Of a stretch of 24,000 nt of DNA, positions 2,247-23,989 are shown piece after piece. Position numbers and translations under genes: made by a program. The DNA is taken from the NCBI RefSeq assembly GCF_001405015.1, contig NZ_CYZX01000003.1, forward strand, positions 113,137 through 137,136, read 5' to 3'. Numbering within the stretch: the stretch's first letter is position 1; every line of letters begins with the position of its first letter. A model generated the notes under the pieces. It was not told the DNA's origin. It did not search any database and saw only the letters and a list, made by a program, of their open reading frames with translations. This DNA comes from Clostridium disporicum (GTDB taxonomy: Bacteria; Bacillota; Clostridia; Clostridiales; Clostridiaceae).

Positions 2247-2267
2247 TTAAGGTCCTCCAATTCAATA

Positions 2268-4058
2268 CTATTGTTTTGGAATTCTTACAAATAAATTATT
2301 AATATGATACTCGTCGTATTCATTATCACTAATTCTATAATTTCCAGCTATTATATTAAATACCTCATCTAAATCCATATCACCATATCCATTTTCCTCA
2401 TTTGGGTAAATAAAATTACCTTTTCTTTTTGCTGCATATATTAATAAACTCCTAATTTTAGTAGAATTAATAGCTAAATCATTTTTATCAGTTACTGCCC
2501 ATTGAAGTAAAAGCGCACATACTCCAGCTACGATTGCTGTTGCAGCAGAACTTCCAGTTGTTGAAATGACATTGTTCCCATCTAAATCTATTGTTAATAT
2601 ATTTGTCCCAACCGTTGCTATATCTGGATTGATAAGATAATTTGCATTAAATCCTTTTCCTGATTCTGCTTGAATTCCACCGGTTATATTACTGTAATAC
2701 GCTACTGTTACCACTCTCATAGCAGTAGATGGTATTGTTAATGTATTATATGGACTAGGTTCTAAAAATTTAGTTCCCTCCGGCATCAACATTTTATCAT
2801 TTAACCATATATCATATCTTCCATTGATTATATACTCTCCTTTTAATTTCAGCTTCCATATACCAGCTTTTATACTTTTAAATTTTAGATGATAAACCTG
2901 ATGTCCTGTATAGTTTTCTGGATCATATTCTTCAACCTGAATATTTGTATCTGTTAAATAAAACTTTCTATCATACTTTGCTTGTACTTTTTGTATAAAA
3001 AAGCCTATCTCCTCCCCTGCTGGAGAAATTATGCTTAAAGACATTCTATTTGGCTTCTGAACCCATATATAGAAATTGAAGACTTCGATAGTTCTAGGTA
3101 TATTTATTTCAACGGTATCAATATCTCCTACATTTTTAATATACCTTGTAACATGGCCTTCACTATTCCCCAAATTTCCAGTACCTGCAACAAATATAAT
3201 TCCACTTTTATCAGCTATTGAAGTAATAAATCTTGCTGTAATATTATATCCATCATGACTTCCCTGTGTACTACCAACTCCTAAGTATATAACTATCGGC
3301 CTCTCTAGTTCTTGTGCTCGTTTTTCTAGATAGGCAATAGCTGCTAATACTTCTGAATTATTATAAACAGGAACTATATGAAGATTGTTCCTCTTTAAAA
3401 TTGTCTTATAATTAGGTGATTCAAAAAGTTTTACAACTAAAAAATCACAATCATTGGCTATTCCAACCATTTTTCCGTTATATCCTCTAGCACCAATTAT
3501 CCCTGCCATTTTTGTGCCATGCCCTACTTCATCTTTACTATTTACAAGTGCATATGGATCTTGTCCATTTTTTTGTGCTTTAATTGCATTATTAATTTCT
3601 GCATTGGTAAATTCTCTTCCTATATATACATTCTCTTTTCTATCTGATTGTATACTTTGGTCCCATAAACTAATTATCCTCGAAGTATCATCTTCTCTAA
3701 TAAACTCCTTATTCAAGTAATTAATCCCTGTATCTATTATTCCAACCAAAACTCCTCTTCCATTTAAACCTATATAAGGATTACTTTTAACTTGATATAT
3801 ATTATCAACATCACTTGGTGATATATCTTGAAGTGTATATACGCTTCTAGCCTCAATAAATATTATTGCCGGTACATCTTTTCTTAATCTATCAAGATTT
3901 TCTTCACTTACAGCTACTACTGCTAATGTATCTGTAATAGTATCACCACATGCATAATCTACCTTATCAATTTGTTCCTTAAAATTCCCTCTATATTCCA
4001 CTACATATCCTGGAGCATTTTCATCTAAATAATAGTTACATGTACTATTACTCATCAT
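2268..4058 (-). CDS. Csp-type subtilisin-like (peptidase S8) spore germination protease, catalytic triad intact; paralog of the downstream gene
   Basis: Triad motifs GIIDTGINY (Asp), VGHGTKMAGIIGA (His) and TTGSSAATAIVAGV (Ser). N-terminal YVVEYRGNF prodomain signature. Only 21 nt separate it from the next csp gene, so they form an operon. Confidence 0.85.
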   Translation of the reverse strand: MMSNSTCNYYLDENAPGYVVEYRGNFKEQIDKVDYACGDTITDTLAVVAVSEENLDRLRKDVPAIIFIEARSVYTLQDISPSDVDNIYQVKSNPYIGLNGRGVLVGIIDTGINYLNKEFIREDDTSRIISLWDQSIQSDRKENVYIGREFTNAEINNAIKAQKNGQDPYALVNSKDEVGHGTKMAGIIGARGYNGKMVGIANDCDFLVVKLFESPNYKTILKRNNLHIVPVYNNSEVLAAIAYLEKRAQELERPIVIYLGVGSTQGSHDGYNITARFITSIADKSGIIFVAGTGNLGNSEGHVTRYIKNVGDIDTVEINIPRTIEVFNFYIWVQKPNRMSLSIISPAGEEIGFFIQKVQAKYDRKFYLTDTNIQVEEYDPENYTGHQVYHLKFKSIKAGIWKLKLKGEYIINGRYDIWLNDKMLMPEGTKFLEPSPYNTLTIPSTAMRVVTVAYYSNITGGIQAESGKGFNANYLINPDIATVGTNILTIDLDGNNVISTTGSSAATAIVAGVCALLLQWAVTDKNDLAINSTKIRSLLIYAAKRKGNFIYPNEENGYGDMDLDEVFNIIAGNYRISDNEYDEYHINNLFVRIPKQ

Positions 4059-7862: not shown

Positions 7863-7890
7863 TTTATTATAATAAATTTTTAATTCTTAA

Positions 7891-9345
<1,455 letters not shown>

Positions 9346-9485
9346 CTAATATAATAAACATTTCATACCTTTACTTACTTTTTATTATATTTCTATAACA
9401 GAAAAAATAATTTCAAATTTTGAAAATATTTAAACTATTTTGCTATTATTTGTTCACTTTACGAAAACTATAGTTCATAAAAAGA

Positions 9486-9531
9486 AAATAAAAAATTCAC
9501 TACCTAACAAGTATAAACTTACTAGGTAGTG
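9486..9531 (-). terminator. Rho-independent terminator of the GntR-ABC operon
   Basis: 9-bp outer stem cactaccta (9498-9506) / taggtagtg (9523-9531) plus inner pairing aagt/actt. On the minus strand it is followed by AATTTTTTATTTT. Confidence 0.6.
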
Positions 9532-9545
9532 TTCCATAAGCTTAT

Positions 9546-10271
9546 TTATTTTACTGTAGCCTTTCTAATCATCTTAAACGAACCAAAAATACATACACCA
9601 AATACTAATATATAAATCAACAACACCAAAAATACCCTATTATCTGTAGATGGTCTAATCTTATCCAAAATAAGAAACCTATCATCTATATTAAACCATA
9701 CTATCCACAATCCTACTGAAAGTACTGACCATATAAGCTGAGTCCTTTCACTAGTTTTTAAATTAATAACACCTATTATTAACCCTATAACAGAAGCTAA
9801 ACTATAAATCATAAATGAAAACAACACTGATCCTATAATTGCATTCAAGCCACCATCCTGCATCCAAATAATTCTTCCTTCTACATCTGTAAACTTTTCA
9901 AAGGTTGTAAAGTAAAGATCATAAAATGTAGGTGCTTTGATAAATAAATTCATTGTTCTATTTATAGCAAAATCTATTACTGCCATAAGCGCTGATATAG
10001 GAAATATAGAAATTATAGTTCCTTTTATAAAAGTACTTCTTGATATATTATTAGCTTGTGCAAACTTAAATTTATTTTTTAATGTATCTGATGCACAAGA
10101 AAGTAAAAATATAAAAGTTAATACGTCCATTATTACCGGTAAAAGAATCTCTCCATATTGCCCTATATTTATAAAAAACATTAGTACTATTGATATTATA
10201 AGATAAAAATATATAATTCTTTTTCTCATGTCTATTATATTAAACTTTGCTACCCTTAAACTTTTATCCAT
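9546..10271 (-). CDS. ABC transporter permease-like membrane protein (paralog 2)
   Basis: About 6 TM segments. Clearly paralogous to the upstream ORF: FAQANNISRSTFIKGTIISIFPISALMAVIDFAINR versus FAQSNNISRKSFIIGVIESIFPIAVVMAVIDVMINR. Operon context with an ABC ATPase. Confidence 0.6.
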   Translation of the reverse strand: MDKSLRVAKFNIIDMRKRIIYFYLIISIVLMFFINIGQYGEILLPVIMDVLTFIFLLSCASDTLKNKFKFAQANNISRSTFIKGTIISIFPISALMAVIDFAINRTMNLFIKAPTFYDLYFTTFEKFTDVEGRIIWMQDGGLNAIIGSVLFSFMIYSLASVIGLIIGVINLKTSERTQLIWSVLSVGLWIVWFNIDDRFLILDKIRPSTDNRVFLVLLIYILVFGVCIFGSFKMIRKATVK

Positions 10272-10274
10272 AGA

Positions 10275-11042
10275 CTATTTCCCCTTAACTTCAGCTTTTT
10301 TAATTAATAAAAATGATATTCCTGTTAATACCATTACAATTAATATTAAACTTAAAAAAGCTAGATAAACATTATTTGTTGCTATTCCAAAAACTTTTCT
10401 TATACCTTCATATACTGAAGGGAAAAAATATCTATTATTTAACTCTATAACTCCAGCTATATTTAACAATGCTATTGGAATTATTGATACTACAACCTTC
10501 ATAATTGTGTTACATCTAAAATATATCATATTTATCACTACACCTAATACATAAGCAAAGCAGTATAACGCTAGCAATAAAAGAAATGTATTTATTATTG
10601 TTAAAAAACTATTACCTTGAATCCATTCATTATATATCCCTACTCTATCAGCTCCAGTTGAAGTATATAATATATCATAAATAGTAGGCATTTGAACAAA
10701 GATATTGGTAATCCTATTTATCATCACATCAATTACAGCCATCACCACAGCTATTGGAAATATTGATTCTATAACACCAATAATAAATGATTTTCTTGAT
10801 ATATTATTACTTTGTGCAAAATAAAAATTTTCTTTAAAAGAATTTAATCCACATACAAAAAGAAATATTACAGTTGCTAGCTCCAATCCTGAATTTACTA
10901 TATGAAAGTTATCATTAAAATTAGTAATATTTTGTATTGTTGTAAAAGTTACTACAGCTATTATAATTAAATAAAATATTATTATAGGCTTTACCATATC
11001 ATTTATATTCATTTTAGCTATTTTAAAGCTCTTATTCACCAT
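10275..11042 (-). CDS. ABC transporter permease-like membrane protein (paralog 1)
   Basis: About 6 TM segments. Its start overlaps the ATPase stop by 11 nt, suggesting translational coupling. Paralogous to 9546..10271. Confidence 0.6.
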   Translation of the reverse strand: MVNKSFKIAKMNINDMVKPIIIFYLIIIAVVTFTTIQNITNFNDNFHIVNSGLELATVIFLFVCGLNSFKENFYFAQSNNISRKSFIIGVIESIFPIAVVMAVIDVMINRITNIFVQMPTIYDILYTSTGADRVGIYNEWIQGNSFLTIINTFLLLLALYCFAYVLGVVINMIYFRCNTIMKVVVSIIPIALLNIAGVIELNNRYFFPSVYEGIRKVFGIATNNVYLAFLSLILIVMVLTGISFLLIKKAEVKGK

Positions 11043-11913
11043 GACTCTCCCCCTTATTAGTCAAGTATATGAATAACTTTTGAAGCTCTACCTTTGAAAA
11101 TTCTAAACCTAGATTTTCTGCTAACTCCTTATCTTTGTTATTAATCTCACCTAAAACTGTAACTGATTTATAATTGCTTAATGATTCAATATTTACAATC
11201 TCCTTAGCTTCAATATATTTATCAACATTTTGACCTAACCCTGATACTGTATAAACCTTGTTTAATAATTCTTCTGATTCTTCTGTATTAACTATCTTTC
11301 TATCATTTAATATAACTACATTTTCTAAAAGGCTAGAAACCTCCTCAATAATGTGAGTTGATAATATTATAGTCTTCGGATTTTCAATATAATCCTTCAT
11401 TAGCTCCTTATAAAATAATTCTCTATGATTTGCATCTAACCCAAGGACCGGCTCATCGTAAATTACAATCTCTGCATTTGATGCCATAGCAGTTATAATC
11501 TTAGCTATCGAACTATAACCTGTTGAAAGATTCTTTATTTTTTTACTTATATCAAGGTCAAACTTTTTAGAAAGCTCTAAGGCATATGACATATTAAAGT
11601 TTGGATAAAACTCTTTTGTATATTTAAATATATCCTTTACCTTATAGCCTTCTGGAAAAAGGTTTCTCTCTGTCATAAAGTATATTTTTTCTAAAGCTTT
11701 ATCATTTTCACGAATATTTTCACCATCAACTTCTACAGTTCCATCATCTTGAAAAACTCTATTTGTAATTATATTTAAAAGAGTAGTTTTCCCAGCTCCA
11801 TTTCTGCCTAACACCCCATAAATTTTATTTTCTTCAAAAGTAAGCGAAATATCATCTAGCACTAAATTATCATCATATTTTTTTCTTAAATTTTTTATTT
11901 CTATCTTTGCCAT
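11032..11913 (-). CDS. ABC transporter ATP-binding protein
   Basis: Walker A GRNGAGKTT, signature-like LSTGYSS, Walker B IVIYDEP and an H-loop STH. Confidence 0.9.
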   Translation of the reverse strand: MAKIEIKNLRKKYDDNLVLDDISLTFEENKIYGVLGRNGAGKTTLLNIITNRVFQDDGTVEVDGENIRENDKALEKIYFMTERNLFPEGYKVKDIFKYTKEFYPNFNMSYALELSKKFDLDISKKIKNLSTGYSSIAKIITAMASNAEIVIYDEPVLGLDANHRELFYKELMKDYIENPKTIILSTHIIEEVSSLLENVVILNDRKIVNTEESEELLNKVYTVSGLGQNVDKYIEAKEIVNIESLSNYKSVTVLGEINNKDKELAENLGLEFSKVELQKLFIYLTNKGESHGE

Positions 11914-11916
11914 ATC

Positions 11917-12279
11917 TTATTCCTCTCTCTCAATCATCTTTATAATATCTTCTTTAGAGATATTAAGTTTTTTTGCCTCTTCAATTAAAGCTACAATGTA
12001 ATCCTTAAAAAATCTCTCTTTTCTTTTATTCATAAGTAAGTCTTTGCTACCCTCTGCTACAAACATACCTATACCTCTCTTTTTATAAATAATTCCTTCA
12101 TCAACAAGAATATTAAATCCTTTTCCAACAGTTGCTGGATTAATTTTATACTTTACAGATATCTCTGTAGTTGATGGAATCATCTCATTTTCTTTAAAAA
12201 TATCTTTTAATATATTATCTTCAATAGCCTGTGCAATCTGGATATATATAGGTACATCATTAGTAAACTCTAAATTCAT
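11917..12279 (-). CDS. GntR family transcriptional regulator, short YtrA-like subfamily
   Basis: 120 aa. Winged-helix motif PSTTEISVKYKINPATVGKGFNILVDEGIIYKKRGIGMFV. It is the first gene of an ABC exporter operon, as in YtrA-type systems. AGGAGG RBS. Confidence 0.85.
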   Translation of the reverse strand: MNLEFTNDVPIYIQIAQAIEDNILKDIFKENEMIPSTTEISVKYKINPATVGKGFNILVDEGIIYKKRGIGMFVAEGSKDLLMNKRKERFFKDYIVALIEEAKKLNISKEDIIKMIEREE

Positions 12280-12316
12280 ACGTCGCCTCCTATACCTTTA
12301 TAATTTAATATATTCA

Positions 12317-12358
12317 ACTATAGTTAATTAGTTCATTGCTTATATAATTAACTATAGT
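12317..12358 (-). promoter_or_regulatory. Candidate operator of the GntR/YtrA-ABC operon (perfect 14-bp inverted repeat)
   Basis: ACTATAGTTAATTA (12317-12330) and its exact reverse complement TAATTAACTATAGT (12345-12358) are separated by 14 nt. The repeat lies 38-79 nt upstream of the regulator ATG. Confidence 0.5.
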
Positions 12359-12540
12359 ACTAACTTACTTTATTGTAAATATTTTACTTATATTTCTTTT
12401 AATAAATCATATTTCATTTTTAGACATTCTTCTTAGTTCACTTTATAAAATTTAGATATTTAGTGAAGCTCTTTACACCTTGTAATAAATTCAATTATTT
12501 CTTTATTAATAACGTAGAATAAATATATAAAGTTTTTAAA

Positions 12541-12584
12541 CAAAAAAAGACCTAGAGCTTTTTTTAGGGGATTAAGCTCTAGGT
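12541..12584 (-). terminator. Rho-independent terminator downstream of hsdR
   Basis: Perfect 11-bp stem acctagagctt (12550-12560) / aagctctaggt (12574-12584). On the minus strand it is followed by CTTTTTTTTG. Confidence 0.7.
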
Positions 12585-12710
12585 TATTTTCAATATTAAA
12601 ATTTTACAAAAGGTTATTTATTTAGGGGACATAATAATTTATTAATTACTACAAGATTTATAATACTCTTTATTTATGTCAATTATGTGACGTAAATTTA
12701 AATTATTTTT

Positions 12711-15700
12711 TTATATAACTTCTGCATTTAATTTTATTTCATTTATAATCTTCATAATTCTTCTTGCATCATCCATGTTATCCTTAAATAACGTAGTTAT
12801 ACTTCCTACTGTTCTAAATGGGTCTTCCTGAAGGATTCTATTATCTTCTATAAATCCGTTAGCAACTACATAATCAACTATAAGCTTAACAAAGTGGATT
12901 TGCTTAGTATTAAGATTCTCATTATTTAAAAACTCTGAAAATGCTTCATTAGCTGCTTGCCTGTCTAATCCTAATACTTTTCTCACAAGCTTACTTACAG
13001 GCATATTACCAAATTCTTTTTCATAATCAGCATTTGAGCCTAACTCATTCCACATAATAGCTTCTAAACTTTCTAAATCTTGCTTAGTAAGCTTTTTATT
13101 ATTTCTAAGATTAAATATAGCTAAATCATCTTTATGCTGATTTAAATAATGCTCAACTTTTTTTCTATAATTTTTAAGGTCATTAGCATTATACATTGCA
13201 TCATTTGATTCTTCATGAACTATAAAGTCTTCAAACTTAGTATAATAAATGGTTTGACCTGTTCTTTGAATATACTTTAGTAATTCCCTTAAAGCATCTC
13301 TAACTTCTTCAATCTCGAATATGTCTGTACTTTCCCAGAATTCCTCTGTCTTTACTTTCTCGATAATATACTTCTTTTCCTGAACCTGAGGAATAGTTCC
13401 AAGCTTAGAAAGGTCTTCTGCTGTATTTATAACCATTCTAATAGGCTTAGTTGCATTACCTCCCTGTAAATAAGCAAGTTCTATTAGATACATTACTAAG
13501 TCAAATCTTTTTGCTAACTCATCATCTTTTAATGATGTTATTAAAGGAGAGATATTCTGCTTTATCTCATTTATATCCATACTTCCAAGAGCATTCCATC
13601 TTTCTCTATTCTTATATTTATGGACTGAACTTAAATTCATTCTTACCCTGAAGTTATCTTCATTTAAGCTTTCTACTGATTTTAAAACAGCATCTAATAA
13701 TTCTTTTCTATAACTTTGATATTCTTCATCAGAATATCTTATATCTTGTAACTCTTTTATTATTTCAACTTTTTTATTAAAAATCTTTTCCGTTAGAGAT
13801 TCGCCTAAAGCTCCATCAAAGCCTTTTGGATTAGCTCTAAAGAATTCAAAGTTATTACAGAAATCAAAGATTAAGAATTCCTCTTTATCTAGACCTACAC
13901 CTAATAAATCTTCACAAAGCCTTGTACCTCTACCTATCATCTGCCAGAACTTTGATTTACTTCTTACTTTTTTAAAAAATACAAGATTTAATATTTCAGG
14001 TATATCGATTCCTGTATCAAGCATATCAACAGATACAGCTACCTGTGGTTCCTTATTCTTATCTGAAAAATCATCAATAATAGTATCAACATATTTAATG
14101 CTATAATCCACAACCTTCATAAAGTTTGCACCATACTCAGGATATATTTTATTAAATCTATCAACTATAGCCTGTGCATGTCTATGGCTCTTTGCAAAGA
14201 TAATAGTCTTCCCTAACTTATCTCCACCTTCAACTCTTAAACCATTATCAATAAGCTTATTTAATACTATATCAATAGTTTTTTCATTGAATAACCAGTT
14301 ATTTATAGCTGAATTTGATATCTCTTTATCTACATTATCATCATCATCAAAAGTATCTTCAAACTGTGCTTTATCTTCTTCAGATAACTCATCATATTTA
14401 ATACCATCTTCCATAACCTTAGACTTAACTTCTAAAGTTTTATAATCAACAAGATATTTATCTTGAACTGCTTTCTCTAATTCATAAGCAAAGGTAGGCA
14501 CACCACTTTCAAGGTCAAAAATTGAATAAGTATTTTTATCTATTTCATCCTTAGGGGTAGCCGTTAACCCTAAAAGCATAGAATCAAAGTAATCGAATAT
14601 AGCTCTATACTTTTTATAAATACTTCTATGTGATTCGTCTACTATTATTAAATCAAAATGACCAGGAGTGAATAACTTCTTACCGTCCTTAGTCTTTGTA
14701 TCATCTATAGCATTCATCATTGTAGGATAAGTTGAAAATATCATTCTTGATTCTTCTGGATTATCCTTATTATCTAAAAGATTACATAATGAAAGGTCTG
14801 GCAATAACTTTGAAAAGTTGTTCTTAGCCTGTTTAACTAATGCAGTTCTATCAGCTAAGAATAAAACATTCTTAATCCAGTTATGCTTTGCAAGTACATC
14901 TACTATAGAGATAGCAGTTCTTGTCTTTCCTGAACCTGTAGCCATAACTAAAAGCATTTTTCTTTGATTTGTGCTTAAAGATTCGCATACAGAAATTATT
15001 GCTTCCTTCTGATAATATCTGTTTGAAATATTGTCATTTATCTTAACATCATTAAAAGGCTTTCTAGAAACTCTTCTATCCACCATAAGCTGAAGCTCAT
15101 CTTTAGTAAAGAATCCGTAAACTCTTCTTTCAGAATACTTGTTATAATCATCCCATATATAAGTTTCAAATCCATTTGTAAAGAATATTACAGGTCTTTG
15201 CCCATACTGTTTTTCTAAACAGTCAGCATAAAGTTTTGCCTGTTGTTGTCCATCTTTAGGGTCTTTACTACTTCTCTTAGCTTCAACAACAGCTATAGGC
15301 TTGCCATTAGCTCCATAAAGTACATAATCAACAAATCCCACACCAGTTTCATTTGGCATTCCATGAACTTCTAACTCTTCTTCAATATCCTTATTAAACT
15401 CCCAGCCTGCAAGCTTAAGCTCAATATCAATATATCTCTTTCTAGTTTCAAATTCACTTATTTCATCTATATTAAAATCATAATTCTTAGCTTTAGCTTC
15501 TCTCTTCTTTGAAAGCTCTTTTCTTAAATCTTCATTCTGCTTTACAATCTCTTCTAATTTTTTATCCTTAGCACTTAGCTTTTCATAAAGATCCTTAAGC
15601 TCTTCAGGTCTAGTTCTCTTCTCTTCACCTTCTAATAAAATATCCTCGTCAAATGGTTCTGCCTTATAATCTCCATAACAATAATCTATCCAAGAAACAA

Positions 15701-16052
15701 ATTGATGAAGATTATGAAGTGCTAAAACAGCCTCTCCTCTTTTAATATTAGAATTAGTATGAACTGCAACATTTCCAAGCTTAACTATGTACTTAATAAG
15801 CGGTAGAAGTTTTGAATCTATAGTCTCAATAAAATTATTATCATAAATAAGACTTGATAAATTATCTTGATATGGAACATTTAAACTCTCATCAAAGCTA
15901 TATACCCATTTAACAGCTAACTCCAAAGCTCTTCTAGTAAGAATTGCACAAGTAGCTGGACTTACTAAAATACTCTTTTCAGCTTCTACACATGCAGTAT
16001 AAAAGCTCTTAAATATATCATTATCCTTTAAAAACTTAAAATTTCCGCCCAT
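12711..16052 (-). CDS. hsdR: Type I restriction endonuclease R subunit (HsdR) with an extra N-terminal DUF4145-like helical domain and an EcoEI-type C-terminal domain
   Basis: PD-(D/E)XK nuclease motif GFVDYVLY...IAVVEAKR; SF2 motor Walker A MATGSGKTRTA and DEAH-box IVDESHRS; QMIGRGTRL motif VI; C-terminal tail ending in a helical domain. GGGGA RBS. Confidence 0.92.
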   Translation of the reverse strand: MGGNFKFLKDNDIFKSFYTACVEAEKSILVSPATCAILTRRALELAVKWVYSFDESLNVPYQDNLSSLIYDNNFIETIDSKLLPLIKYIVKLGNVAVHTNSNIKRGEAVLALHNLHQFVSWIDYCYGDYKAEPFDEDILLEGEEKRTRPEELKDLYEKLSAKDKKLEEIVKQNEDLRKELSKKREAKAKNYDFNIDEISEFETRKRYIDIELKLAGWEFNKDIEEELEVHGMPNETGVGFVDYVLYGANGKPIAVVEAKRSSKDPKDGQQQAKLYADCLEKQYGQRPVIFFTNGFETYIWDDYNKYSERRVYGFFTKDELQLMVDRRVSRKPFNDVKINDNISNRYYQKEAIISVCESLSTNQRKMLLVMATGSGKTRTAISIVDVLAKHNWIKNVLFLADRTALVKQAKNNFSKLLPDLSLCNLLDNKDNPEESRMIFSTYPTMMNAIDDTKTKDGKKLFTPGHFDLIIVDESHRSIYKKYRAIFDYFDSMLLGLTATPKDEIDKNTYSIFDLESGVPTFAYELEKAVQDKYLVDYKTLEVKSKVMEDGIKYDELSEEDKAQFEDTFDDDDNVDKEISNSAINNWLFNEKTIDIVLNKLIDNGLRVEGGDKLGKTIIFAKSHRHAQAIVDRFNKIYPEYGANFMKVVDYSIKYVDTIIDDFSDKNKEPQVAVSVDMLDTGIDIPEILNLVFFKKVRSKSKFWQMIGRGTRLCEDLLGVGLDKEEFLIFDFCNNFEFFRANPKGFDGALGESLTEKIFNKKVEIIKELQDIRYSDEEYQSYRKELLDAVLKSVESLNEDNFRVRMNLSSVHKYKNRERWNALGSMDINEIKQNISPLITSLKDDELAKRFDLVMYLIELAYLQGGNATKPIRMVINTAEDLSKLGTIPQVQEKKYIIEKVKTEEFWESTDIFEIEEVRDALRELLKYIQRTGQTIYYTKFEDFIVHEESNDAMYNANDLKNYRKKVEHYLNQHKDDLAIFNLRNNKKLTKQDLESLEAIMWNELGSNADYEKEFGNMPVSKLVRKVLGLDRQAANEAFSEFLNNENLNTKQIHFVKLIVDYVVANGFIEDNRILQEDPFRTVGSITTLFKDNMDDARRIMKIINEIKLNAEVI

Positions 16053-16115: not shown

Positions 16116-16197
16116 ATTGTACTTTTTAATCGTCAAAAAAACAAAAAGGCACATTATACTGGCGCCTAATCATCAATTGGGATTTCTTTTATTTTAC

Positions 16198-16218
16198 TTG
16201 GTGATATCCTCTCACCAA
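16198..16218 (-). terminator. Weak hairpin just after the Rpn-family gene stop
   Basis: 7-bp stem ttggtga / tcaccaa with a 7-nt loop. The T-tract on the minus strand is poor (GTAAAATAAAAG), so termination is probably leaky at best. Confidence 0.25.
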
Positions 16219-16221
16219 ATC

Positions 16222-17073
16222 TTATTTACAGTTATCTTCTCTTAATTTTTTTACTTCATCAATATCTAACCCTATCTTTTCTGATATAGTTTCATCATCA
16301 AGTATATCTAATAAAGAAATAGCATTTTTTATTTTCTCTTTCATGCTACCTCTTGCTTCTGCAGTATTAATCATATTGGCTCTTTCATGAAGCGACCTCT
16401 CTCTTTCCCAATAAATACTCATAGTATCCTCATCACTACTTAAGTACTCAATTCTCTTTTCAGCCTTTTCTATAGCAGGTTCCAAATTCATCAACTCCCT
16501 CAAAGTTGTTTCTGGTATATCCTTCTCTAAAAATGCTAACCATCTTTCAATAGCATTATCTTTATAGTTCTTATTTTGCTTACGCCTAAACTTAGGTAAC
16601 TCTAAAAAATGTATTTCAACCATATCAGTTAGCATATAATCTTTTTCAATATCCTCCCAAAGGTGAAATGATGATTGATAACCTTCCGTATTTAAGTAAT
16701 CAAAATCTAATATGTTTATTGTAATTACTTTTTCAAGCTTAGTATAGTCATCACCTTGTTTAATATTCTCAAGATACATCTTTCCCCAATAGAATAAAGT
16801 TCTTTTATCCATATTCCCTTGGTCAGTCAACTGCACCTCTATATCAATATTTTCACCTTTAGCAGTTCGTGCTCTTACATCTATTATACCAGTTTTATCA
16901 TTTATGACTTCTTTAGTTAATTGCTTATTATCTATAATTTCAATTTCTATTATCGGTTCTTTATTAGTTCTTTTTAATACTGCATTAATGAATGATATTA
17001 AGATATCTTCATTACCTTTTTCACCAAACACTTTTTTAAAAATGAAGTCATTTAGTGGTTTAATTTTTCTCAT
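16222..17073 (-). CDS. Rpn-family recombination-promoting nuclease / PD-(D/E)XK putative transposase (YhgA-like, PDDEXK_2)
   Basis: N-terminal MRKIKPLNDFIFKKVFGEKGNEDILISFINAVL is the family hallmark. Nuclease core GIIDVRARTAKGENIDIEVQL shows the D...E-x-Q pattern. Start moved to the ATG at 17073, because GAGGTG lies 6 nt upstream while the ORF-track start is a GTG inside that RBS. Confidence 0.8.
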   Translation of the reverse strand: MRKIKPLNDFIFKKVFGEKGNEDILISFINAVLKRTNKEPIIEIEIIDNKQLTKEVINDKTGIIDVRARTAKGENIDIEVQLTDQGNMDKRTLFYWGKMYLENIKQGDDYTKLEKVITINILDFDYLNTEGYQSSFHLWEDIEKDYMLTDMVEIHFLELPKFRRKQNKNYKDNAIERWLAFLEKDIPETTLRELMNLEPAIEKAEKRIEYLSSDEDTMSIYWERERSLHERANMINTAEARGSMKEKIKNAISLLDILDDETISEKIGLDIDEVKKLREDNCK

Positions 17074-17147
17074 TATATTCACCTCATAGGTTTTATCTTT
17101 AGTTTAAATTGTTGACTTATCTTAAAGTTTATAAACATCACTTTTTT

Positions 17148-17693
17148 CTATGATAAATTATATTCTAATAAGTCATTATTTATCTTTATATTTCCATATT
17201 TTAAATTTTTATTTAGAAATTCTCTAGCATATGGTTGTAAATTATACGCAAAACTTGAACCACTCCTACTAATAGTTGATGCTAAATATATTATTTTCTT
17301 ATTCTCTAAAGCAGCCTTTCTTCCATCCGAATAACTTATATATCCTGATGATTTAAATATCTTATTTGTATCATCATAAAATGTTTTAATAATTAGTTGC
17401 ATCTCATCGGGGCTAATTTGATTTTTCATATATTTAATAGCTATTTTCTTTGAATTTATTAATTTACTAACCATCATCTCACTTATAAATACTATTATAC
17501 TTAATATATAATATGCAGATGCTATAATAAGTCCTAAACTAATATATACTTGATACTTTTCTTTAAACTCTCCTAGATACATCAATTCTATTATATTTTT
17601 AGGTAATATAGTTATTAATAATGTTGTAAAAAATACTACTCCAACAAGCTCTTTAATTTTAAACTTATCTACTATCGTTTTTATTAATTCCAT
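17148..17693 (-). CDS. Small 2-TM membrane protein, tentatively superinfection-exclusion B (SieB)-like
   Basis: TM1 is around aa 16-31 and TM2 around aa 48-75, followed by a soluble tail of about 105 aa (ISPDEMQLIIKTFY...ENKKIIYL...YNLQPYAREFL). Layout and size recall Firmicute SieB-family proteins, but this rests on memory only. GGGGG RBS. Starts 41 nt after the hsdS stop, with no hairpin between. Confidence 0.4.
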   Translation of the reverse strand: MELIKTIVDKFKIKELVGVVFFTTLLITILPKNIIELMYLGEFKEKYQVYISLGLIIASAYYILSIIVFISEMMVSKLINSKKIAIKYMKNQISPDEMQLIIKTFYDDTNKIFKSSGYISYSDGRKAALENKKIIYLASTISRSGSSFAYNLQPYAREFLNKNLKYGNIKINNDLLEYNLS

Positions 17694-17734
17694 TTATCCC
17701 CCTATATATTTTTATTAAGTTAATATCTTATCAA

Positions 17735-18862
17735 TTAAAATAACTCTCCTTTGAATGCTTTTTGCATTAATGAATTAAAGTTATCTTCTAATTCATTTAA
17801 ACTCTTTTCCATTTCAAGTTTTAATTTATCGACTTGTTCAACGAAATCAGCAAATTGATTTTGAAGCTCTATTGGTGGTACAATAACTTTTTGTTCACTC
17901 AATATTTTAAGGTTTATATTCTTTTGTGCTGACTCTGGTGCTGAATCTTCCAATATTTTTTGCAAGAATGACATCCAAAATTGAATAAACATATTATTAG
18001 TTTTTTCATTTGGAATGAAAGCAACTACACTATCTGGGAAACAAGCGTCAAAAGTTAATATACTTGTTTTTGCAATGTTAGCAGCAATAGTAATACATAA
18101 CGTTCCTTTATCCCACATTTTACTCTGCTTAAGTCCAAATTCTGAATAAGTCTGTGTATATTCTTTCAAATATATACCTGCATTTGCAATATCTCCTGTT
18201 TGAACTAAAGGATATGGACCACCTAATAATTCTGGAGCATTTCTTGGTCTATGTTTAGATTTCCCTCTTGCTAACTCACCTAACTCATTTAGCTTCTCTT
18301 TTTCCCATCCCTTTGAATTAGTAACTGGATCACCAAACATCTCGATAAATTGTGATTTAACTAATTCGTCTAAAGCTTCTATTTGTTCTTTTCTTTTATC
18401 TATTAATTCTTGTGCTTTATTTATAATATTTTTAATTTTTTTTTGAATTTCTAACGGTAACTTAGGTATCTCTAATTCTTCTAAAGACTCTCTCTGTATA
18501 TGTGGTATAGTAGCACCTGTGCATTTCTCTCTTAAATACGCTGATTTACTTCTAAGAAATAACCCGCAAAATTCTGTATCCATTTCATTATTATCTTTAG
18601 TTAACTTAGCTAGTGTACTTCCTATAGCTCCTTCTAAACCAAATCCTATAGTCCCAGCATTAGCTCCATCCCAAGCTATAATAATATCCTCTTTATTCAC
18701 TATTACATACTTTTTATCATTTTCACAATATTTTAAGTTAATATCATTTCTTAAATCATCTATTTGAATAAATCTTATGGAAGAATCCGTTCTTTCTTCT
18801 ACTTGTTCTACCTTCTTTCCTTTTGTTATTTTAAAAAGGTCCTTTATTTTAATATACTCCAT
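17735..18862 (-). CDS. hsdS: Type I restriction-modification specificity subunit (HsdS), two target-recognition domains
   Basis: Two TRD-like halves separated by the conserved helix LEIQKKIKNIINKAQELIDKRKEQIEALDELVKSQF, and ending with LQNQFADFVEQVDKLKLEMEKSLNELEDNFNSLMQKAF. Start moved to the ATG at 18862, 4 nt after the hsdM stop, with GGGGAG 7 nt upstream. Confidence 0.9.
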   Translation of the reverse strand: MEYIKIKDLFKITKGKKVEQVEERTDSSIRFIQIDDLRNDINLKYCENDKKYVIVNKEDIIIAWDGANAGTIGFGLEGAIGSTLAKLTKDNNEMDTEFCGLFLRSKSAYLREKCTGATIPHIQRESLEELEIPKLPLEIQKKIKNIINKAQELIDKRKEQIEALDELVKSQFIEMFGDPVTNSKGWEKEKLNELGELARGKSKHRPRNAPELLGGPYPLVQTGDIANAGIYLKEYTQTYSEFGLKQSKMWDKGTLCITIAANIAKTSILTFDACFPDSVVAFIPNEKTNNMFIQFWMSFLQKILEDSAPESAQKNINLKILSEQKVIVPPIELQNQFADFVEQVDKLKLEMEKSLNELEDNFNSLMQKAFKGELF

Positions 18863-18866
18863 ACCT

Positions 18867-20339
18867 CTACTCCCCAATCATCTCTGCTAACTCTTCAATT
18901 CCAGCAGTGATTTCCATTTCTAGTTCTCTTATTCTTAGCATTATTTCTTGTGGTGAGTCGTAGTGAACTTCTTCGTATTCTATTTCTTTGTATTTATTTA
19001 TTGATAAATCATATCCGTTATCTCTTATTTCTTCTACTGGTACAAAGAAGCTTTGCTCTGTTCTTTTTCTATCTACTTCTTTATCTAGGTTGCTGAATCT
19101 TTCTACTATATCATTAATGTCATTATCTTCTATTGGATTTCTCTTATCATCTAATGAATATCCGTCAGCTTTCATATCATAGAACCATACTTTATCTGTT
19201 CCGCCTGTACCTGTCTTTGTGAATATCATAATTGCTGTAGATACTCCTGCATATGGTTTAAATACTCCTGATGGCATTGAGATAATAGCTTCTAGCTTAT
19301 GGTTTTCTACTATTTCTTTTCTTATAGATTTATGTCCTCCTGTTGAACCAAATAAAACTCCATCTGGAACTATTGAAGCACATCTTCCACCTGTCTTTAA
19401 AATTCTTAAGAATAACGCTAAGAATAAAAGCTCAGTTTTCTTTGTTTTAGTTGTCTTAAGTAAATCTGCTGATACTGCTTCATAGTCTAAACTTCCCTTA
19501 AATGGAGGATTTGCAAGAACTAAAGTAAACTTATCTTTATCTGTATTTACTTCTGATAATGAATCCTTATATTCAATATTAGGATTATCAACACCATGAA
19601 GCATCATATTCATAGCACCGATTCTAAGCATAGTTCTATCCATATCAAAACCATAGAACATTCCATTATTAAAATGCTCCTTTAAACCTTGAACTAAGAA
19701 AAGTTCAGGATGATTTTCTCTTAAGTAAGCCTGAGAAGATACTAAGAACCCTGCTGAACCTGCTGCTGGATCAACTATTATATCTTCAGGAGTTGGCTTC
19801 ATAAGCTTAACTATCATATCGATAATATGTCTTGGAGTTCTAAACTGCCCATTAGTACCTGCTGTGGCAACCTTTGAAAGTAAATATTCATAAAGGTCAC
19901 CTTTAGTATCTTTATCATCCTCCATATCTATATTATCAATACCATCAACTATCTTACTTAGCATAAGTGGAGTTGGAATCTTAAATATTGCATCTCCCAT
20001 ATACTTTGCATAAGCTGAATCTGCATTATTGTGAAGATTTTTTATAAAAGGAAATACCTCTTCAGATACTACCTTATACATTTCTCCTGCTTCAAAATTC
20101 TTAAACTTGCTCCATCTTAATTGTTGTTTATCTTCTGGAAAAGTCCTATCAAAATCTATACCTAAAAGTACAGCATCATTTTCCTTAACAATTTCCTTAT
20201 CATCAAGACCTTTAATAAATAAAAGATATGTAAATTGTTCTATTACCTCTAATGGGTTAGTTATACCTCCAGTCCAAAATGTTTCCCATATTTTATCAAC
20301 TTTACTTCTTAATTCGCCTGTAATCATATTTTCCTCCAA
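18867..20339 (-). CDS. hsdM: Type I restriction-modification N6-adenine DNA methyltransferase subunit (HsdM)
   Basis: HsdM_N-like N-terminus (LRSKVDKIWETFWTGG); AdoMet motif I VDPAAGSAGFL; catalytic motif IV LANPPFKGS. GGAGGA RBS. Confidence 0.95.
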   Translation of the reverse strand: MEENMITGELRSKVDKIWETFWTGGITNPLEVIEQFTYLLFIKGLDDKEIVKENDAVLLGIDFDRTFPEDKQQLRWSKFKNFEAGEMYKVVSEEVFPFIKNLHNNADSAYAKYMGDAIFKIPTPLMLSKIVDGIDNIDMEDDKDTKGDLYEYLLSKVATAGTNGQFRTPRHIIDMIVKLMKPTPEDIIVDPAAGSAGFLVSSQAYLRENHPELFLVQGLKEHFNNGMFYGFDMDRTMLRIGAMNMMLHGVDNPNIEYKDSLSEVNTDKDKFTLVLANPPFKGSLDYEAVSADLLKTTKTKKTELLFLALFLRILKTGGRCASIVPDGVLFGSTGGHKSIRKEIVENHKLEAIISMPSGVFKPYAGVSTAIMIFTKTGTGGTDKVWFYDMKADGYSLDDKRNPIEDNDINDIVERFSNLDKEVDRKRTEQSFFVPVEEIRDNGYDLSINKYKEIEYEEVHYDSPQEIMLRIRELEMEITAGIEELAEMIGE

Positions 20340-20620: not shown

Positions 20621-20892
20621 GACTTACATTTTTCTTACCTTTGACTTACGTAAGAAGCTGGTCTTAGCCCTTGAAATCACTAGTGACTTACATGACTTAC
20701 GTAAATCCTATATACATTATCTATATATTTTTCAATAAATAAAAAAATTTTCCATAAAAATATATATCTCTAATTAGGTAAGTCATGTAAGTCATTAATA
20801 ACTTTTTCTTTGTAAACCTAGTGATGATAAGTGTTTAGCTATGACTTACATACCTAAGAAGTCATGTAAGTCAACGTAAGTCAATGTAAGTC
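20621..20892. repeat. Iteron array (GACTTAC / GTAAGTC, 10 perfect copies in two clusters) flanking an AT-rich core; candidate replication origin of the element
   Basis: GACTTAC occurs at 20621, 20643, 20685, 20694 and 20843. GTAAGTC occurs at 20778, 20787, 20866, 20876 and 20886. There are tandem 9-10-bp units, such as three copies of (a/c)(t/g)GTAAGTCA at 20864-20893. An almost pure A/T stretch at 20705-20777 separates the clusters. Confidence 0.6.
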
Positions 20893-22791
20893 AAAAGCTA
20901 TTAATGCAGATTTATTAGAAACTTCTCTCTCTTTAAAATCTCTTTTTATTTCCTCTTCATCCTCTATTGCTATATTTAATTTGATACAGTTTGTCATAGC
21001 TCCAAATATTCTTGTTTGATGTACATATCTTCCCTGTGAATTCTTGGTTATAAGCCCTACCTTGTACAACTTATCTTTAACTGCATTAAAATTAATCCTA
21101 TGTGAATTTAGCATTTTCATTAATACTGTTTTATTTATAAAACATTCTTTCTTTATATTGTCTAATTTACCCCATATTTCACCACTTTCATTTTCTTTAA
21201 ATTTATTAATATTCTGCCCAATCCAATCTAGTATTAGGTCATATATGTTTTTAGTAACATCTTTCTCGCTATTTTTAGGAATAAATTCTGTTATGTCACT
21301 AATTTCTAGTTTTTCATCTCCAAATATAAAGTTGCTAAGCTCATCCCCTAAAAGAATTGCTGCTGTGCTTAATACTTGTTTATCTGTAATATCTGAACTT
21401 TCTTGCACCATCTTAATAAATTCAGAGTATATTATGTTAACCTCTTTATTAGTAATTAAGTTATCTATAAAGTCTTTTCCAGCAAAACCGTAATTTTCTC
21501 TTACAAAGTTTGCCGTATAATTCCCATCTTCTATTACACTTTCTTTTGCTTCTATTTCGATAACTCTATTTTTAACACCTCCACCAGAGTTTTCTTGAAC
21601 TATTGGCTCTTCACCAGAAAACATAAATATATTTTGCCAAGTCCCCTGAACATCAACGCCACCATAAGACTTACCTCTACTTCTATCTATACCTTCAGTA
21701 AGTTGCATTATTAAAGAATCAAAGCTTTCATATTTATCTTTTATAATCTGAAGCTCATCAAAGGCTATTGGTAAGCTATTCATAAAAGAAGCGTATCTTC
21801 CCATAGCTACTGCTGTGGAATTTAATGTCTTAACAAGCTTGCCTAACGAGGGGTCACCCCATATACTCATAGCTACCATTAATCCAACAGTTTTCCCTGC
21901 TCCAGTACCTCCCCAAAGATGTATAATAAAAGGTAACGTTCCTGTTATTTTAAGTAAACAGCTAGCAAAAGAAGCCGCCATAAGTATTTTTACGATTTTA
22001 CTTTCACTTCGTAGCTTTATACAAAAGCTTTTCCAAGCTTCATAATCTCCTTTTTCTTTTATACTATCGTAAACTTCTTTAAAAGCAATATCTCCATCAT
22101 ATTTTAAATTTTCTGCATATGGTGAAAACTCTTTATCTATCCATCCTACTTTGCTTATACTTCTTGATACAGGTATCTTATCCACATTTGTATCTAATAC
22201 ATCTGTTATATATGTGACTAAATTGCCTGCATTGTTTGAATTTACGCCTATTCCTCTATCAGCAATGTTTATTATAATAGATTTATTTGCAATTACACTT
22301 CTTTCGATAACAACCTCCTTCCAAATATTATCCTTATAAAAAGCAATCTTAACCTTCTCCATACCAGTTTCTATATTTACAAGCCTCTCTACTGGTAATA
22401 TAGGGTGGGGACAAGCTACTTCTTTTACTTGTTGAATATTCTTCAATTCTGTTTTCCATACACCACTATCATCTGCAATCCACTCTCCACATTGTAAGTC
22501 CTCTAATGGTGGATTAGAAAAATCTATAAAATTATTACTTTCCTTAGGCTTAATATCTTTCATCTGTTGCTTCTTATAAGCCTTTTCCACAGCCTTAAAC
22601 TGTTTAGTAATATTTAAATCAGAAGCTCTATTAAAAAGCTTAGCTAAAATAATCTCTCGCTCAACTTCATCATCTATTGAATAAATATACTCAAAATTCT
22701 TTTTATCAATAATCTCATTTTTACCCATATTCAAGATTAAACTTTCCATAAAACCTAAATTAATTAATTCATCAGCAAAATTATTATTCAA
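20881..22791 (-). CDS. DUF927-type P-loop NTPase / replicative helicase of a mobile element
   Basis: Walker A LWGGTGAGKT and Walker B IAFDELQ. Size and layout match DUF927 primase-helicase proteins of Firmicute islands and prophages. TTG start at 22791 with GGGAGGAA 6 nt upstream. Overlaps the upstream gene by 8 nt. Confidence 0.8.
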   Translation of the reverse strand: MNNNFADELINLGFMESLILNMGKNEIIDKKNFEYIYSIDDEVEREIILAKLFNRASDLNITKQFKAVEKAYKKQQMKDIKPKESNNFIDFSNPPLEDLQCGEWIADDSGVWKTELKNIQQVKEVACPHPILPVERLVNIETGMEKVKIAFYKDNIWKEVVIERSVIANKSIIINIADRGIGVNSNNAGNLVTYITDVLDTNVDKIPVSRSISKVGWIDKEFSPYAENLKYDGDIAFKEVYDSIKEKGDYEAWKSFCIKLRSESKIVKILMAASFASCLLKITGTLPFIIHLWGGTGAGKTVGLMVAMSIWGDPSLGKLVKTLNSTAVAMGRYASFMNSLPIAFDELQIIKDKYESFDSLIMQLTEGIDRSRGKSYGGVDVQGTWQNIFMFSGEEPIVQENSGGGVKNRVIEIEAKESVIEDGNYTANFVRENYGFAGKDFIDNLITNKEVNIIYSEFIKMVQESSDITDKQVLSTAAILLGDELSNFIFGDEKLEISDITEFIPKNSEKDVTKNIYDLILDWIGQNINKFKENESGEIWGKLDNIKKECFINKTVLMKMLNSHRINFNAVKDKLYKVGLITKNSQGRYVHQTRIFGAMTNCIKLNIAIEDEEEIKRDFKEREVSNKSALIAFDLH

Positions 22792-23350
22792 TATAATTTC
22801 CTCCCATTCTAAGCTTGTTTATTATTTTCTTATTATTTATTAAAAATTGTAGCTTGTCTCTTTCATCTCCTTCTATAAAAATATCTAGGTAATAATCTAT
22901 TTGTTCTAACATCATTGCTGTCTCATCATCATTCTTTTCTGCTAGGTATCTTCTATAATCGCTTAGCAAAATAAATATTTCATTTTCTACTCTTTTGAAT
23001 TCTTCTAATATAAGCATTTTTTGCTTGTACTTATTTGGGAATTTAAATTCAGATTTGCATTTATTCTTACTTAAATTAAGACCTAATGCTAAAGAATCAT
23101 TTATATATTGTGCTGCTTTATATGGCTTTATATTAAGTATCTTAGATACAAGAGTTATTGAATCTCCCGTTTCTCCACATCCAAAGCATTTAAATATTTG
23201 TTTCTTTTCAGATATGCTGAAAGATGGTGTGTTTTCAGAATGAAATGGACATAAACATTTATTAGCTCTATTAAGATTTATACCTACTAATTTTGCAACA
23301 TCAATTATGTTGCTTCTTGTTTTAATTTCCTTTATAAGCTCATTGACCAT
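22784..23350 (-). CDS. CHC2 zinc-finger (DnaG-type) primase-like protein, no TOPRIM domain
   Basis: CPFHSENTPSFSISEKKQIFKCFGCGETGD is the canonical zf-CHC2 primase finger. At 188 aa the protein is too short for a catalytic TOPRIM domain. AGGAG RBS. Confidence 0.8.
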   Translation of the reverse strand: MVNELIKEIKTRSNIIDVAKLVGINLNRANKCLCPFHSENTPSFSISEKKQIFKCFGCGETGDSITLVSKILNIKPYKAAQYINDSLALGLNLSKNKCKSEFKFPNKYKQKMLILEEFKRVENEIFILLSDYRRYLAEKNDDETAMMLEQIDYYLDIFIEGDERDKLQFLINNKKIINKLRMGGNYIE

Positions 23351-23486
23351 ATTGCTCCTATGAAATTTCTAGAAATTTAAATATAAATTATTAAAGTACT
23401 CATTTAGTAAATATGATTGAATTTTTTAATTTTGCTTATATAAAATAAAAAATTTAATATTTTATAAAATTAATCTTTAAAGCATT

Positions 23487-23531
23487 ACAGCTCTAAACAT
23501 AGTATTTTACACTGTTTAGAGCTGTTTTTAT
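23487..23531 (+). terminator. Strong hairpin with a T-tract only on the plus strand (orientation opposite to both flanking genes)
   Basis: Perfect 13-bp stem acagctctaaaca (23487-23499) / tgtttagagctgt (23513-23525). On the plus strand TTTTTA follows; on the minus strand AATGCTTTAAAG follows. Confidence 0.4.
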
Positions 23532-23590
23532 CTATTATTTTTGTATATAACAAATAATTTGTATAATAAAATTTTCAAATAATCTTCTTA

Positions 23591-23989
23591 CTAATCTTCT
23601 ACATCAATTAAATTACTTTCATATTCTATTTTTCCAGTAAGTACACCGTCATAGAAAGCTTGTTTATTATCAATAAAATTAATACACTCATTAATTTCTT
23701 TAATTTGATTTAATAACGCTTCTTTTGATTTATTAAGCATCTCTTTTCTTTCTGGAATTGTAGACGGTCCTTGTAAGCAATAATTCATATATAATTTCAT
23801 ATCTTTAATACTCATACCACATTTCTTTAAACATTGTAGTCCCTTTAACCATGCAACATTTTTTTCATCAAAAATACGATAATTATTTTTATCTCTTTTT
23901 ACATTAGGCACTAAGCCTTCTTTACAATAATACTTTAATGTTTCATATGATATCCCAACTTGCTTACTAACCTCTTTCATTGTGTACAT
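23591..23989 (-). CDS. MerR family transcriptional regulator
   Basis: N-terminal HTH YTMKEVSKQVGISYETLKYYCKEGLVPNVKRDKNNYRIFDEKNVAWLKGLQCLKKCGMSIKDMK followed by a coiled-coil dimerisation helix. The 132-aa size is typical. Confidence 0.85.
   Translation of the reverse strand: MYTMKEVSKQVGISYETLKYYCKEGLVPNVKRDKNNYRIFDEKNVAWLKGLQCLKKCGMSIKDMKLYMNYCLQGPSTIPERKEMLNKSKEALLNQIKEINECINFIDNKQAFYDGVLTGKIEYESNLIDVED

Follow-up and report, generated by a model that had tools for sequence, protein, structure and literature searches.

What two extra genes do inside a type I restriction-modification (R-M) operon, and whether they belong to each other, to the R-M complex or to neither, is the question raised by a locus in a 24,000-nucleotide stretch of Clostridium disporicum DNA (contig NZ_CYZX01000003.1, positions 113,137 to 137,136), referred to below as the window. 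All genes of the locus lie on the minus strand, in the order hsdM, hsdS, a gene for a 181-aa SieB-like protein, a gene for an Rpn-family nuclease (rpn) and hsdR. An earlier note on this DNA had described the two genes between hsdS and hsdR as a cassette of two unrelated genes, a two-transmembrane (2-TM) protein and a PD-(D/E)XK nuclease, that occupies the position of prrC and might serve as a second line of defense. The gene order bears out the two extra genes and the prrC-like position, as both stand between hsdS and hsdR of a type I operon. We consider it probable that the locus is an intact type I R-M operon with two separate single-gene defense modules nested between hsdS and hsdR. The two open reading frames (ORFs) have 84 (SieB-like) and 1635 (Rpn) conserved homologs, and are therefore real genes. 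Because they are inherited separately, they are two separate add-ons and not a two-gene system.

The 181-aa protein (17148–17693, minus strand) matched the Pfam profile PF14163 with an E-value of 3.1e-15 and 56.5 bits (cut-off 26), residues 23–163 aligning with profile positions 7–146 of 147, and was 100% identical to the NCBI protein 'super-infection exclusion protein B [Clostridium disporicum]'. The same profile was found in 82 of the 84 homologs, the exceptions being the two shortest-matching ones. These matches place the 2-TM protein in the SieB family, under which NCBI already lists it. Hydropathy analysis gave two hydrophobic segments, at approximately residues 17–31 and 50–72, in agreement with the 2-TM description, and the Lys-rich flanks of these segments suggest that both termini face the cytoplasm. 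In the AlphaFold2 model (mean pLDDT 86), helices at residues 13–29 and 41–78 are followed by an alpha/beta domain; this conserved cytosolic domain covers approximately residues 81–178. In a Foldseek search of the model against BFVD, the second-ranked match was Q38660, a 195-aa P22 entry, with a probability of 0.98 but an E-value of 0.039 and a TM of 0.33 over 107 columns. Based on its size and operon, this entry is probably P22 SieB itself. Foldseek against the PDB returned winged-helix matches to MarR/PadR proteins that were weak and not significant (E 0.065–0.5), and the protein had no match in PHROGs or NCBIfam.

P22 SieB halts macromolecular synthesis midway in the lytic cycle of a superinfecting phage (PMC10883804), and is controlled by the in-frame product Esc and an antisense RNA, sas (PMC12197685). 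Classic SieB genes are located in prophages; the window's gene is in an hsd operon. No relatives of the SieB-like protein were found in IMG/VR viral contigs or in plasmids, and 50,697 phage records yielded a single match, with 37% coverage, to YopH of Bacillus phage SPbeta (NC_001884.1). The yopH gene (74916–75101) corresponds to residues 97–163 of the SieB-like protein at 43% identity, and is annotated as a superinfection exclusion B family protein. The window's gene had no conserved candidate for an Esc-like internal start: M73 and M74 vary among the homologs, and M89 is invariant but lacks a Shine-Dalgarno sequence. On the plus strand, antisense to the gene, a promoter-like site with an extended -10 was seen at 17501–17528; such sites were no commoner than in shuffled sequences.

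The rpn ORF was listed as 16222–17082 (286 aa, GTG at 17082), but its likely true start is the ATG at 17073, which follows GAGGTG and gives a protein of 283 aa (RpnL; 16222–17073, minus strand). The NCBI and Logan gene calls place the start at the same position. The protein matched PDDEXK_2 (PF12784; E 1.2e-62), the TIGR01784 'Rpn family' model (E 8.2e-47, 160 bits, cut-off 52) and phrog_3300, and the earlier assignment to the Rpn-family PD-(D/E)XK nucleases thus holds. In an alignment with 12 homologs (A2), residues D9, D65, E79-x-Q81 and R91 were invariant, and this motif matches D11, D63, E82, Q84 and R94 of RpnA in order and spacing, by motif position without direct alignment. RpnA is a non-specific endonuclease, and mutations in its active site abolish activity (PMC5350276). 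A sequence search of the PDB found no Rpn relative.

Residues 1–241 of Rpn are nearly invariant among the homologs, and the C-terminal tails are of at least three types; the tail of one homolog (P0147) contains the four-residue repeats GIEQGIEKG. Nucleotide homology with every relative stops at 16349, corresponding to codon 242, within the variable tail (16222–16374, minus strand) that is a candidate for RpnS. Toxic Rpn nucleases are blocked by RpnS, a small protein whose translation begins internally, within the variable C-terminal tail; RpnS is likewise produced from an rpn gene of C. difficile, and one RpnL/RpnS system confers protection from T-even phages (Zhong et al, 2023, PMC10400941). 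The same study found rpn genes to be enriched near defense genes and observed no autonomous transposition (PMC10400941). Two methionines in the window's tail could serve as such a start: the invariant M234 (16374), preceded by GAAAGAG and 5 nt, a weak Shine-Dalgarno sequence, and M244 (16344), present in this allele only and preceded by AGAGGT and 4 nt, a good one. Judged by profile, motif and tail, the nuclease is a typical RpnL/RpnS-type Rpn-family protein. The earlier note had presented the pair as unrelated genes outside any described system; they fall into the SieB family and the RpnL/RpnS type, and embedding in type I operons had already been described.

The census of SieB-like genes comprised 18 distinct loci, a small sample (a genome-contig scan gave 10). 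Sixteen of the 18 were without rpn, and outside the window's own lineage no Rpn gene was found within 8–10 kb of the SieB-like gene in any of them. Two other assemblies of this locus (L030 and L031) have the SieB-rpn arrangement of the window. The claim that the two genes form a pair is thus contradicted, as they were not found together outside this lineage.

In six loci besides the window's own, the SieB-like gene is located 13–42 nt past the stop codon of an R-M gene. Two of these, L024 (representing L024–L029) and L001 (Clostridium gasigenes), belong to the window's own hsd family, and another two, L002 and L011, to a different type I family with an HsdM 52% identical. In L017 the SieB-like gene comes after hsdR, and in L020 (region 7876–10555) it begins 13 nt beyond a 703-aa ORF in which a C5 DNA methylase is fused to an HpaII-type restriction endonuclease. 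Looser associations with type I genes were present in L022, where the SieB-like gene is one gene downstream of hsdS, and in L023, where the distance from hsdS is about 2 kb. Overall, 8 of the 18 loci had type I genes beside the SieB-like gene, one had a type II system, and the rest had neither. Other neighbors were SIR2_2 with Abi_2, the defense candidate PDC-S60 with a HEPN protein, and NOV_C with a PLD nuclease; some contexts could not be annotated.

Two of the loci in the window's own hsd family are informative about rpn. In L024–L029, where the SieB-like protein is 81% identical to that of the window, hsdM, hsdS, the SieB-like gene and hsdR are all kept, while rpn has decayed to 12 N-terminal codons and a P0098-type tail broken by a stop codon. 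Hence, rpn is dispensable for the rest of the operon. In L001, a split SMODS cyclase and an SLATT_4 gene stand between the SieB-like gene and hsdR (8661–12635). The CBASS-like oligonucleotide cyclase of this locus consists of a SMODS ORF and a 115-aa ORF (PADLOC Cyclase E 1e-41), and an hsdS fragment is also present. No traces of rpn were detected in L001, L002, L011 or L017 at E-values up to 1.

Rpn belongs to a multi-copy Clostridium family, and approximately 25 loci were examined out of the 1635 homologs. The closest relatives are 83–87% identical over the full length and about 93% identical over the first ~240 residues. Every relative with at least 83% identity is encoded immediately before hsdR in an operon of the window's family, and these loci occupy at least five genomic contexts. 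HsdM is 91–93% identical to that of the window in L032, L037, L064 and L067, and HsdR of the rpn-bearing relatives is 84–86% identical. At 80% identity or less, the flanks of Rpn relatives contained no hsd genes. A single metagenome contig (OIFK01000080.1; L046 and L052) carries two Rpn paralogs about 20 kb apart, 76–77% identical to the window's protein and with no hsd genes nearby, which indicates that the family is multi-copy outside R-M loci.

Among the five to six operon configurations with an orthologous rpn, the SieB-like gene occurs only in that of the window. There it is the sole content of a variable cargo slot, slot X, between hsdS and rpn (17121–17732, minus strand), defined by the segment missing from the empty-site relative L042. 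In other relatives, the same slot holds a 519-aa DRT reverse transcriptase UG31 (E 3e-113), often split (L036–L039), a 523-aa SIR2-like protein with a weak match (L032–L035), or a 232-aa protein with a weak GIY-YIG match (L067–L070), and it is empty in L042 and L063–L066. A second slot, between rpn and hsdR, is occupied by an ORF of 88 aa or one of 212 aa, or else by an IS3 element accompanied by a tyrosine recombinase and an additional half hsdS. Going by this distribution, rpn is a conserved resident of the operon family, and the SieB-like gene belongs to a set of interchangeable cargoes.

Some of these relatives showed further rearrangements. The contents of the second slot in L063–L066, with an IS3-family transposase, a tyrosine recombinase and a second, half-size hsdS, look like a phase-variable hsdS shufflon. 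The DRT UG31 gene encodes 519 aa in L038 and is split into ORFs of 209 aa and 301 aa in L036, L037 and L039; hsdM and hsdR are both split in L036, and hsdR is split in L038. This suggests that the whole locus is undergoing decay in some strains.

At the nucleotide level, the segments of the window with homology to L032, L037 and L042 are hsdM, the conserved stretches of hsdS, a block that begins about 50 nt before rpn and extends to its codon 242, and hsdR together with its promoter; the intervening parts differ. Break points coincide with the hsdS stop codon, codon 242 of rpn and the hsdR promoter, and one lies 45–60 nt before rpn. Upstream of rpn, homology with the relatives starts at 17119–17133, and in the empty site of L042 hsdS homology ends at 17733 and the homology upstream of rpn sets in at 17120, with 12 nt between. 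HsdS has two variable target-recognition domains with conserved central and 3' segments, and nucleotide conservation of hsdS with the relatives is confined to 18302–18423 and 17726–17881. Comparison of filled and empty sites revealed no direct repeats or target-site duplications at the cassette junctions. A recent transposon-like insertion, of rpn or of the SieB-like gene, was ruled out because neither junction repeats nor target-site duplications were found. The earlier note had named a recent independent insertion of rpn as a finding that would count against it; the situation is the reverse, with rpn conserved and the SieB-like gene swappable. The Rpn tail types are also common to paralogs outside hsd loci, which implies recombination among rpn copies.

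The R-M genes around the two modules were compared with type I models. The methyltransferase gene hsdM (18867–20339, minus strand) matched N6_Mtase (E 2e-69) and HsdM_N, and PADLOC MTase_I over residues 5–489 (E 5e-196); its ORF starts with TTG at 20339, and database gene calls use 20327, giving 486 aa. The specificity subunit gene hsdS (17735–18877, minus strand) matched Pfam Methylase_S in two stretches and Specificity_I over 7–380. The restriction subunit gene hsdR (12711–16052, minus strand; 1113 aa) matched ResIII (E 1e-43), HSDR_N, EcoEI_R_C and DUF4145, and PADLOC REase_I over residues 4–1087 (E 2e-177). The R-M system looks intact, all three Hsd proteins matching type I models over their full length. 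In HsdR, DUF4145 forms an N-terminal part (residues 23–115) ahead of the nuclease and helicase parts, and is common to all relatives of the operon family.

Signals for transcription were then considered across the locus. The gap between hsdS and the SieB-like gene (17694–17734, minus strand) is exactly the hairpin-free 41 nt reported earlier; it ends in the ribosome-binding site AGGGGG and folds no better than shuffled sequences (z +0.28). The same is true for the 74-nt gap before rpn (17074–17147, minus strand; z +1.07), of which the last ~45–60 nt, including GAGGTG, are conserved upstream of rpn in all relatives. RNA folding gave two hairpins 3' of the rpn stop codon (16133–16220, minus strand) that the earlier account had lacked, one at 16196–16220 and another at about 16147–16167 (region ~16174–16133), the latter resembling an intrinsic terminator with a G+C stem followed by a U-run. 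The fold has -20.5 kcal/mol and a z of -3.13, and 1 of 200 shuffles was equally good. Ahead of hsdR, a consensus scan found the promoter-like site TTGACG-16-TATGAT (16136–16109, minus strand; 10 of 12 matches), inside a block conserved with related loci (block start 16141 or 16113). The hsdR promoter-like box described before is thus present and conserved, but is not significant by itself against shuffles. The promoter scan as a whole was not above chance, with 46 sites versus 54 expected from shuffles, and given this the promoter assignments are suggestions only. The hairpin ahead of the hsdR box is consistent with an hsdM-hsdS-sieB-rpn transcript terminating upstream of a separate hsdR promoter, and the likely transcription units are hsdM-hsdS-sieB-rpn and, separately, hsdR. 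Co-transcription of both genes with hsdMS, as previously proposed, appears probable from the hairpin-free gaps and the terminator-like hairpin after rpn, which is a reading of the sequence only.

Taken together, these data are best read as an added defense layer inside an R-M locus, as the earlier note had supposed, and both families have defense roles. In our proposed mechanism, the SieB-like gene and rpn are probably transcribed together with hsdMS from the hsdM promoter, in a transcript that would end at the hairpin after rpn, with hsdR having its own promoter. The SieB-like protein, going by its family membership and architecture, would sense a phage cue via its cytosolic domain and act at the membrane, and most likely it aborts infection by phages that escape restriction, by analogy with P22 SieB. 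RpnL is probably a toxic non-specific DNA endonuclease with an RpnS antitoxin made from the separately translated variable tail. As published for the family, and as may be expected here, infection would free RpnL from RpnS and lead to DNA degradation. Both modules would act in parallel to restriction and not as a two-component system, and their embedding would keep them co-transferred and co-expressed with hsdMS. The operon position itself probably accumulates and exchanges defense cargo by homologous recombination via conserved flanks, for which the 3' end of hsdS, the 5' part of rpn and the hsdR promoter region are the candidates.

Several observations weigh against this reading of two independent modules. 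The tail position of the SieB-like gene in unrelated R-M systems and the strict retention of rpn would also be expected if the genes were coupled to the R-M complex. All linkages between rpn and hsd genes trace to one ancestral operon and are hence not independent observations, and the sample as a whole (18 SieB-like loci and ~25 Rpn loci) is small and partly non-independent. The basis of the SieB assignment is the profile match plus a weak structural similarity to the P22 protein (E 0.039, TM 0.33); PADLOC had no matching model for the SieB-like protein or for Rpn; and the clade, unseen in viral contigs and plasmids, may have diverged in function from prophage SieB. For RpnS, the internal start at M234 or M244 is a candidate only.

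The explanations that tie the two genes to the R-M complex or to each other differ widely in plausibility. In a guard of the PrrC kind, the SieB-like protein and/or RpnL would be held inactive by HsdM and HsdS, with or without HsdR, and released upon anti-restriction, killing the infected cell. We judge this unlikely. The two genes occupy the same place as prrC, between hsdS and hsdR, and transcription signals are probably absent between hsdS and both genes, but the ABC-ATPase and anticodon-nuclease domains of PrrC were found in neither protein with Pfam, NCBIfam or PADLOC. The SieB-like gene does follow the last R-M gene by 13–42 nt in at least four unrelated R-M backgrounds, yet about half of the SieB-like loci have no adjacent R-M gene. 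Similarly, the confinement of the rpn subclade to this operon family recalls PrrC, which is almost always embedded, whereas the Rpn family at large works without R-M genes and with its own antitoxin (PMC10400941), and R-M genes are intact where rpn has decayed (L024–L029) or is absent (L001). Embedded systems that have been tested (TgvAB, BrxU) act independently of the surrounding system. Much less probable still is a genuine two-gene system with the membrane protein and the nuclease as sensor and effector, which the independent assortment largely refutes. The genes are adjacent, on the same strand and separated by a hairpin-free gap of 74 nt, and L030 and L031 have the same arrangement, but the pairing is limited to this single lineage: rpn is missing from 16 of 18 SieB-like loci, the SieB-like gene is missing from four to five of the five to six rpn-bearing configurations, L042 and L063–L066 combine rpn with an empty slot X, and L024–L029 combine the SieB-like gene with a dead rpn. 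It is also very improbable that the SieB-like protein is an R-M accessory, for example one that tethers the complex to the membrane, or regulates it, where DNA enters the cell. Its gene is repeatedly found directly downstream of R-M genes of differing types, against which stand the many homologs beside non-R-M defense genes or without any R-M gene, and a family that is defined by phage exclusion proteins. The winged-helix-like matches of its cytosolic domain to MarR and PadR, which might suggest a regulator, are weak and not significant (E 0.07–0.5).

The remaining alternatives concern rpn more than the SieB-like gene. The nuclease gene might be mainly selfish or structural, either as a toxin-antitoxin addiction module that stabilizes the R-M island or as a nuclease that drives cargo exchange in the flanking slots; we regard this as a doubtful explanation. 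Rpn proteins are toxin-antitoxin systems (PMC10400941), but defense activity has been directly demonstrated for one of them. They raise RecA-independent recombination (PMC5350276), and rpn is a fixed anchor between two variable slots, with one break point inside it at codon 242; nevertheless, the conserved slot flanks are long enough for ordinary homologous recombination, the variable hsdS domains are equally mosaic without help from Rpn, and cargo has turned over in L001 without rpn. The tail types that are common to paralogs outside hsd loci imply recombination among copies, while no specific sites or repeats are present at the junctions. There is likewise only a small chance that rpn has a function within this type I R-M family and is more than cargo, with the SieB clade as a sensor of restriction failure in parallel. 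In one version of this idea, a latent RpnL may be checked by the Hsd complex together with RpnS and be freed by phage anti-restriction proteins. In the other, the recombination-promoting activity of Rpn may make and maintain the two flanking hot spots at which cargo is swapped, the cargo in that case possibly being the SieB-like gene, the DRT UG31, SIR2-like and GIY-YIG-like genes and the hsdS shufflon. The Clostridial SieB clade could be a general tail gene of R-M operons that senses restriction failure.

The surroundings of the operon were also inspected. Upstream of hsdM lie a MerR-type regulator gene (23591–23989), a primase-like gene with a CHC2 zinc ribbon (22784–23350) and a DUF927 gene with a Cch-type helix-turn-helix (20881–22791). 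In its content, this stretch (20881–23989) resembles a small mobile island's replication module; the window has neither an integrase nor a tRNA gene. Related hsd-rpn blocks occur in chromosomal surroundings that differ widely. At the far end (471–4058) are two tandem subtilase (Peptidase_S8) genes of 591 and 596 aa, with no relation to the embedded genes.

Having named the alternatives, we return to the two-module reading and its significance. The locus is a clear natural case of defense genes piling up in R-M operons, as one operon backbone shows at least five differing inserts at one slot, plus an empty site and a decayed one. It raises the question whether the SieB family, so far studied only in lambdoid prophages, includes chromosomal abortive-infection genes in gut Clostridia, and what an Rpn toxin-antitoxin nuclease gains from a position beside hsdR. 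Should either gene prove to depend on the R-M complex, it would represent a second kind of R-M guard after PrrC.

Compared with SieB of P22 and lambda, the window's protein is similar in its near-full match to PF14163, its size (181 versus ~190 aa), its N-terminal 2-TM hairpin with a cytosolic domain, the weak fold match to Q38660 and the abortive exclusion that would be its expected activity. It differs in that its gene is in a chromosomal R-M operon and not a prophage, in the lack of evidence here for an Esc-type start or a sas-like antisense RNA, and in being a Firmicute protein too distant for BLAST. With RpnL/RpnS (E. coli RpnA-E and RpnP2; C. difficile Rpn), the window's Rpn shares TIGR01784, the intact D, D, E-x-Q, R motif, the hypervariable tail, and a location among defense genes without target-site duplications. 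In contrast to the E. coli proteins, which belong to the sister family PF04754, it is in PF12784 (PDDEXK_2), its internal start is a candidate only, and its subclade is fixed in a type I R-M operon instead of being scattered. According to a review, rpn toxin-antitoxin genes are found alongside type I families in the immigration control region of E. coli.

The closest parallels for the arrangement as a whole are other embedded genes. In EcoprrI, prrC is embedded as hsdM-hsdS-prrC-hsdR (PMC12707154), and the window's genes have the same operon position, probable co-transcription with hsdMS and a place as a second layer behind restriction. They differ from PrrC in having no ABC-ATPase or anticodon-nuclease domain and in a SieB-like family that often occurs without R-M genes; the window's HsdR is of the EcoEI_R_C type, whereas EcoprrI is type IC. 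Genes embedded in R-M operons have usually been found to be defense genes with independent action. The type I cluster of Vibrio cholerae VPI-2 contains TgvAB as an embedded system (PMC11411939), and the 'guilt-by-embedding' approach of Payne et al. (2024) identified 17,432 embedded genes in BREX, DISARM and type I systems (bioRxiv 10.1101/2024.01.29.577857); the text and 11 supplementary files of that study do not mention SieB, Rpn or their Pfam numbers. A literature search combining SieB with type I restriction gave mostly false matches to the author name Siebert. As with TgvAB and the Payne candidates, defense genes interrupt an active-looking hsd operon in the window, the cargo varies among related operons, and embedding links horizontal transfer. 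Unlike them, the window's operon family has one conserved embedded gene, rpn, flanked by two exchangeable slots. The kind of locus is thus already known, namely defense genes of known families in an R-M operon, and its specific SieB/Rpn content is new. The new points are modest: a conserved embedded rpn between swappable slots, and a Clostridial SieB clade that is repeatedly the last gene in R-M operons.

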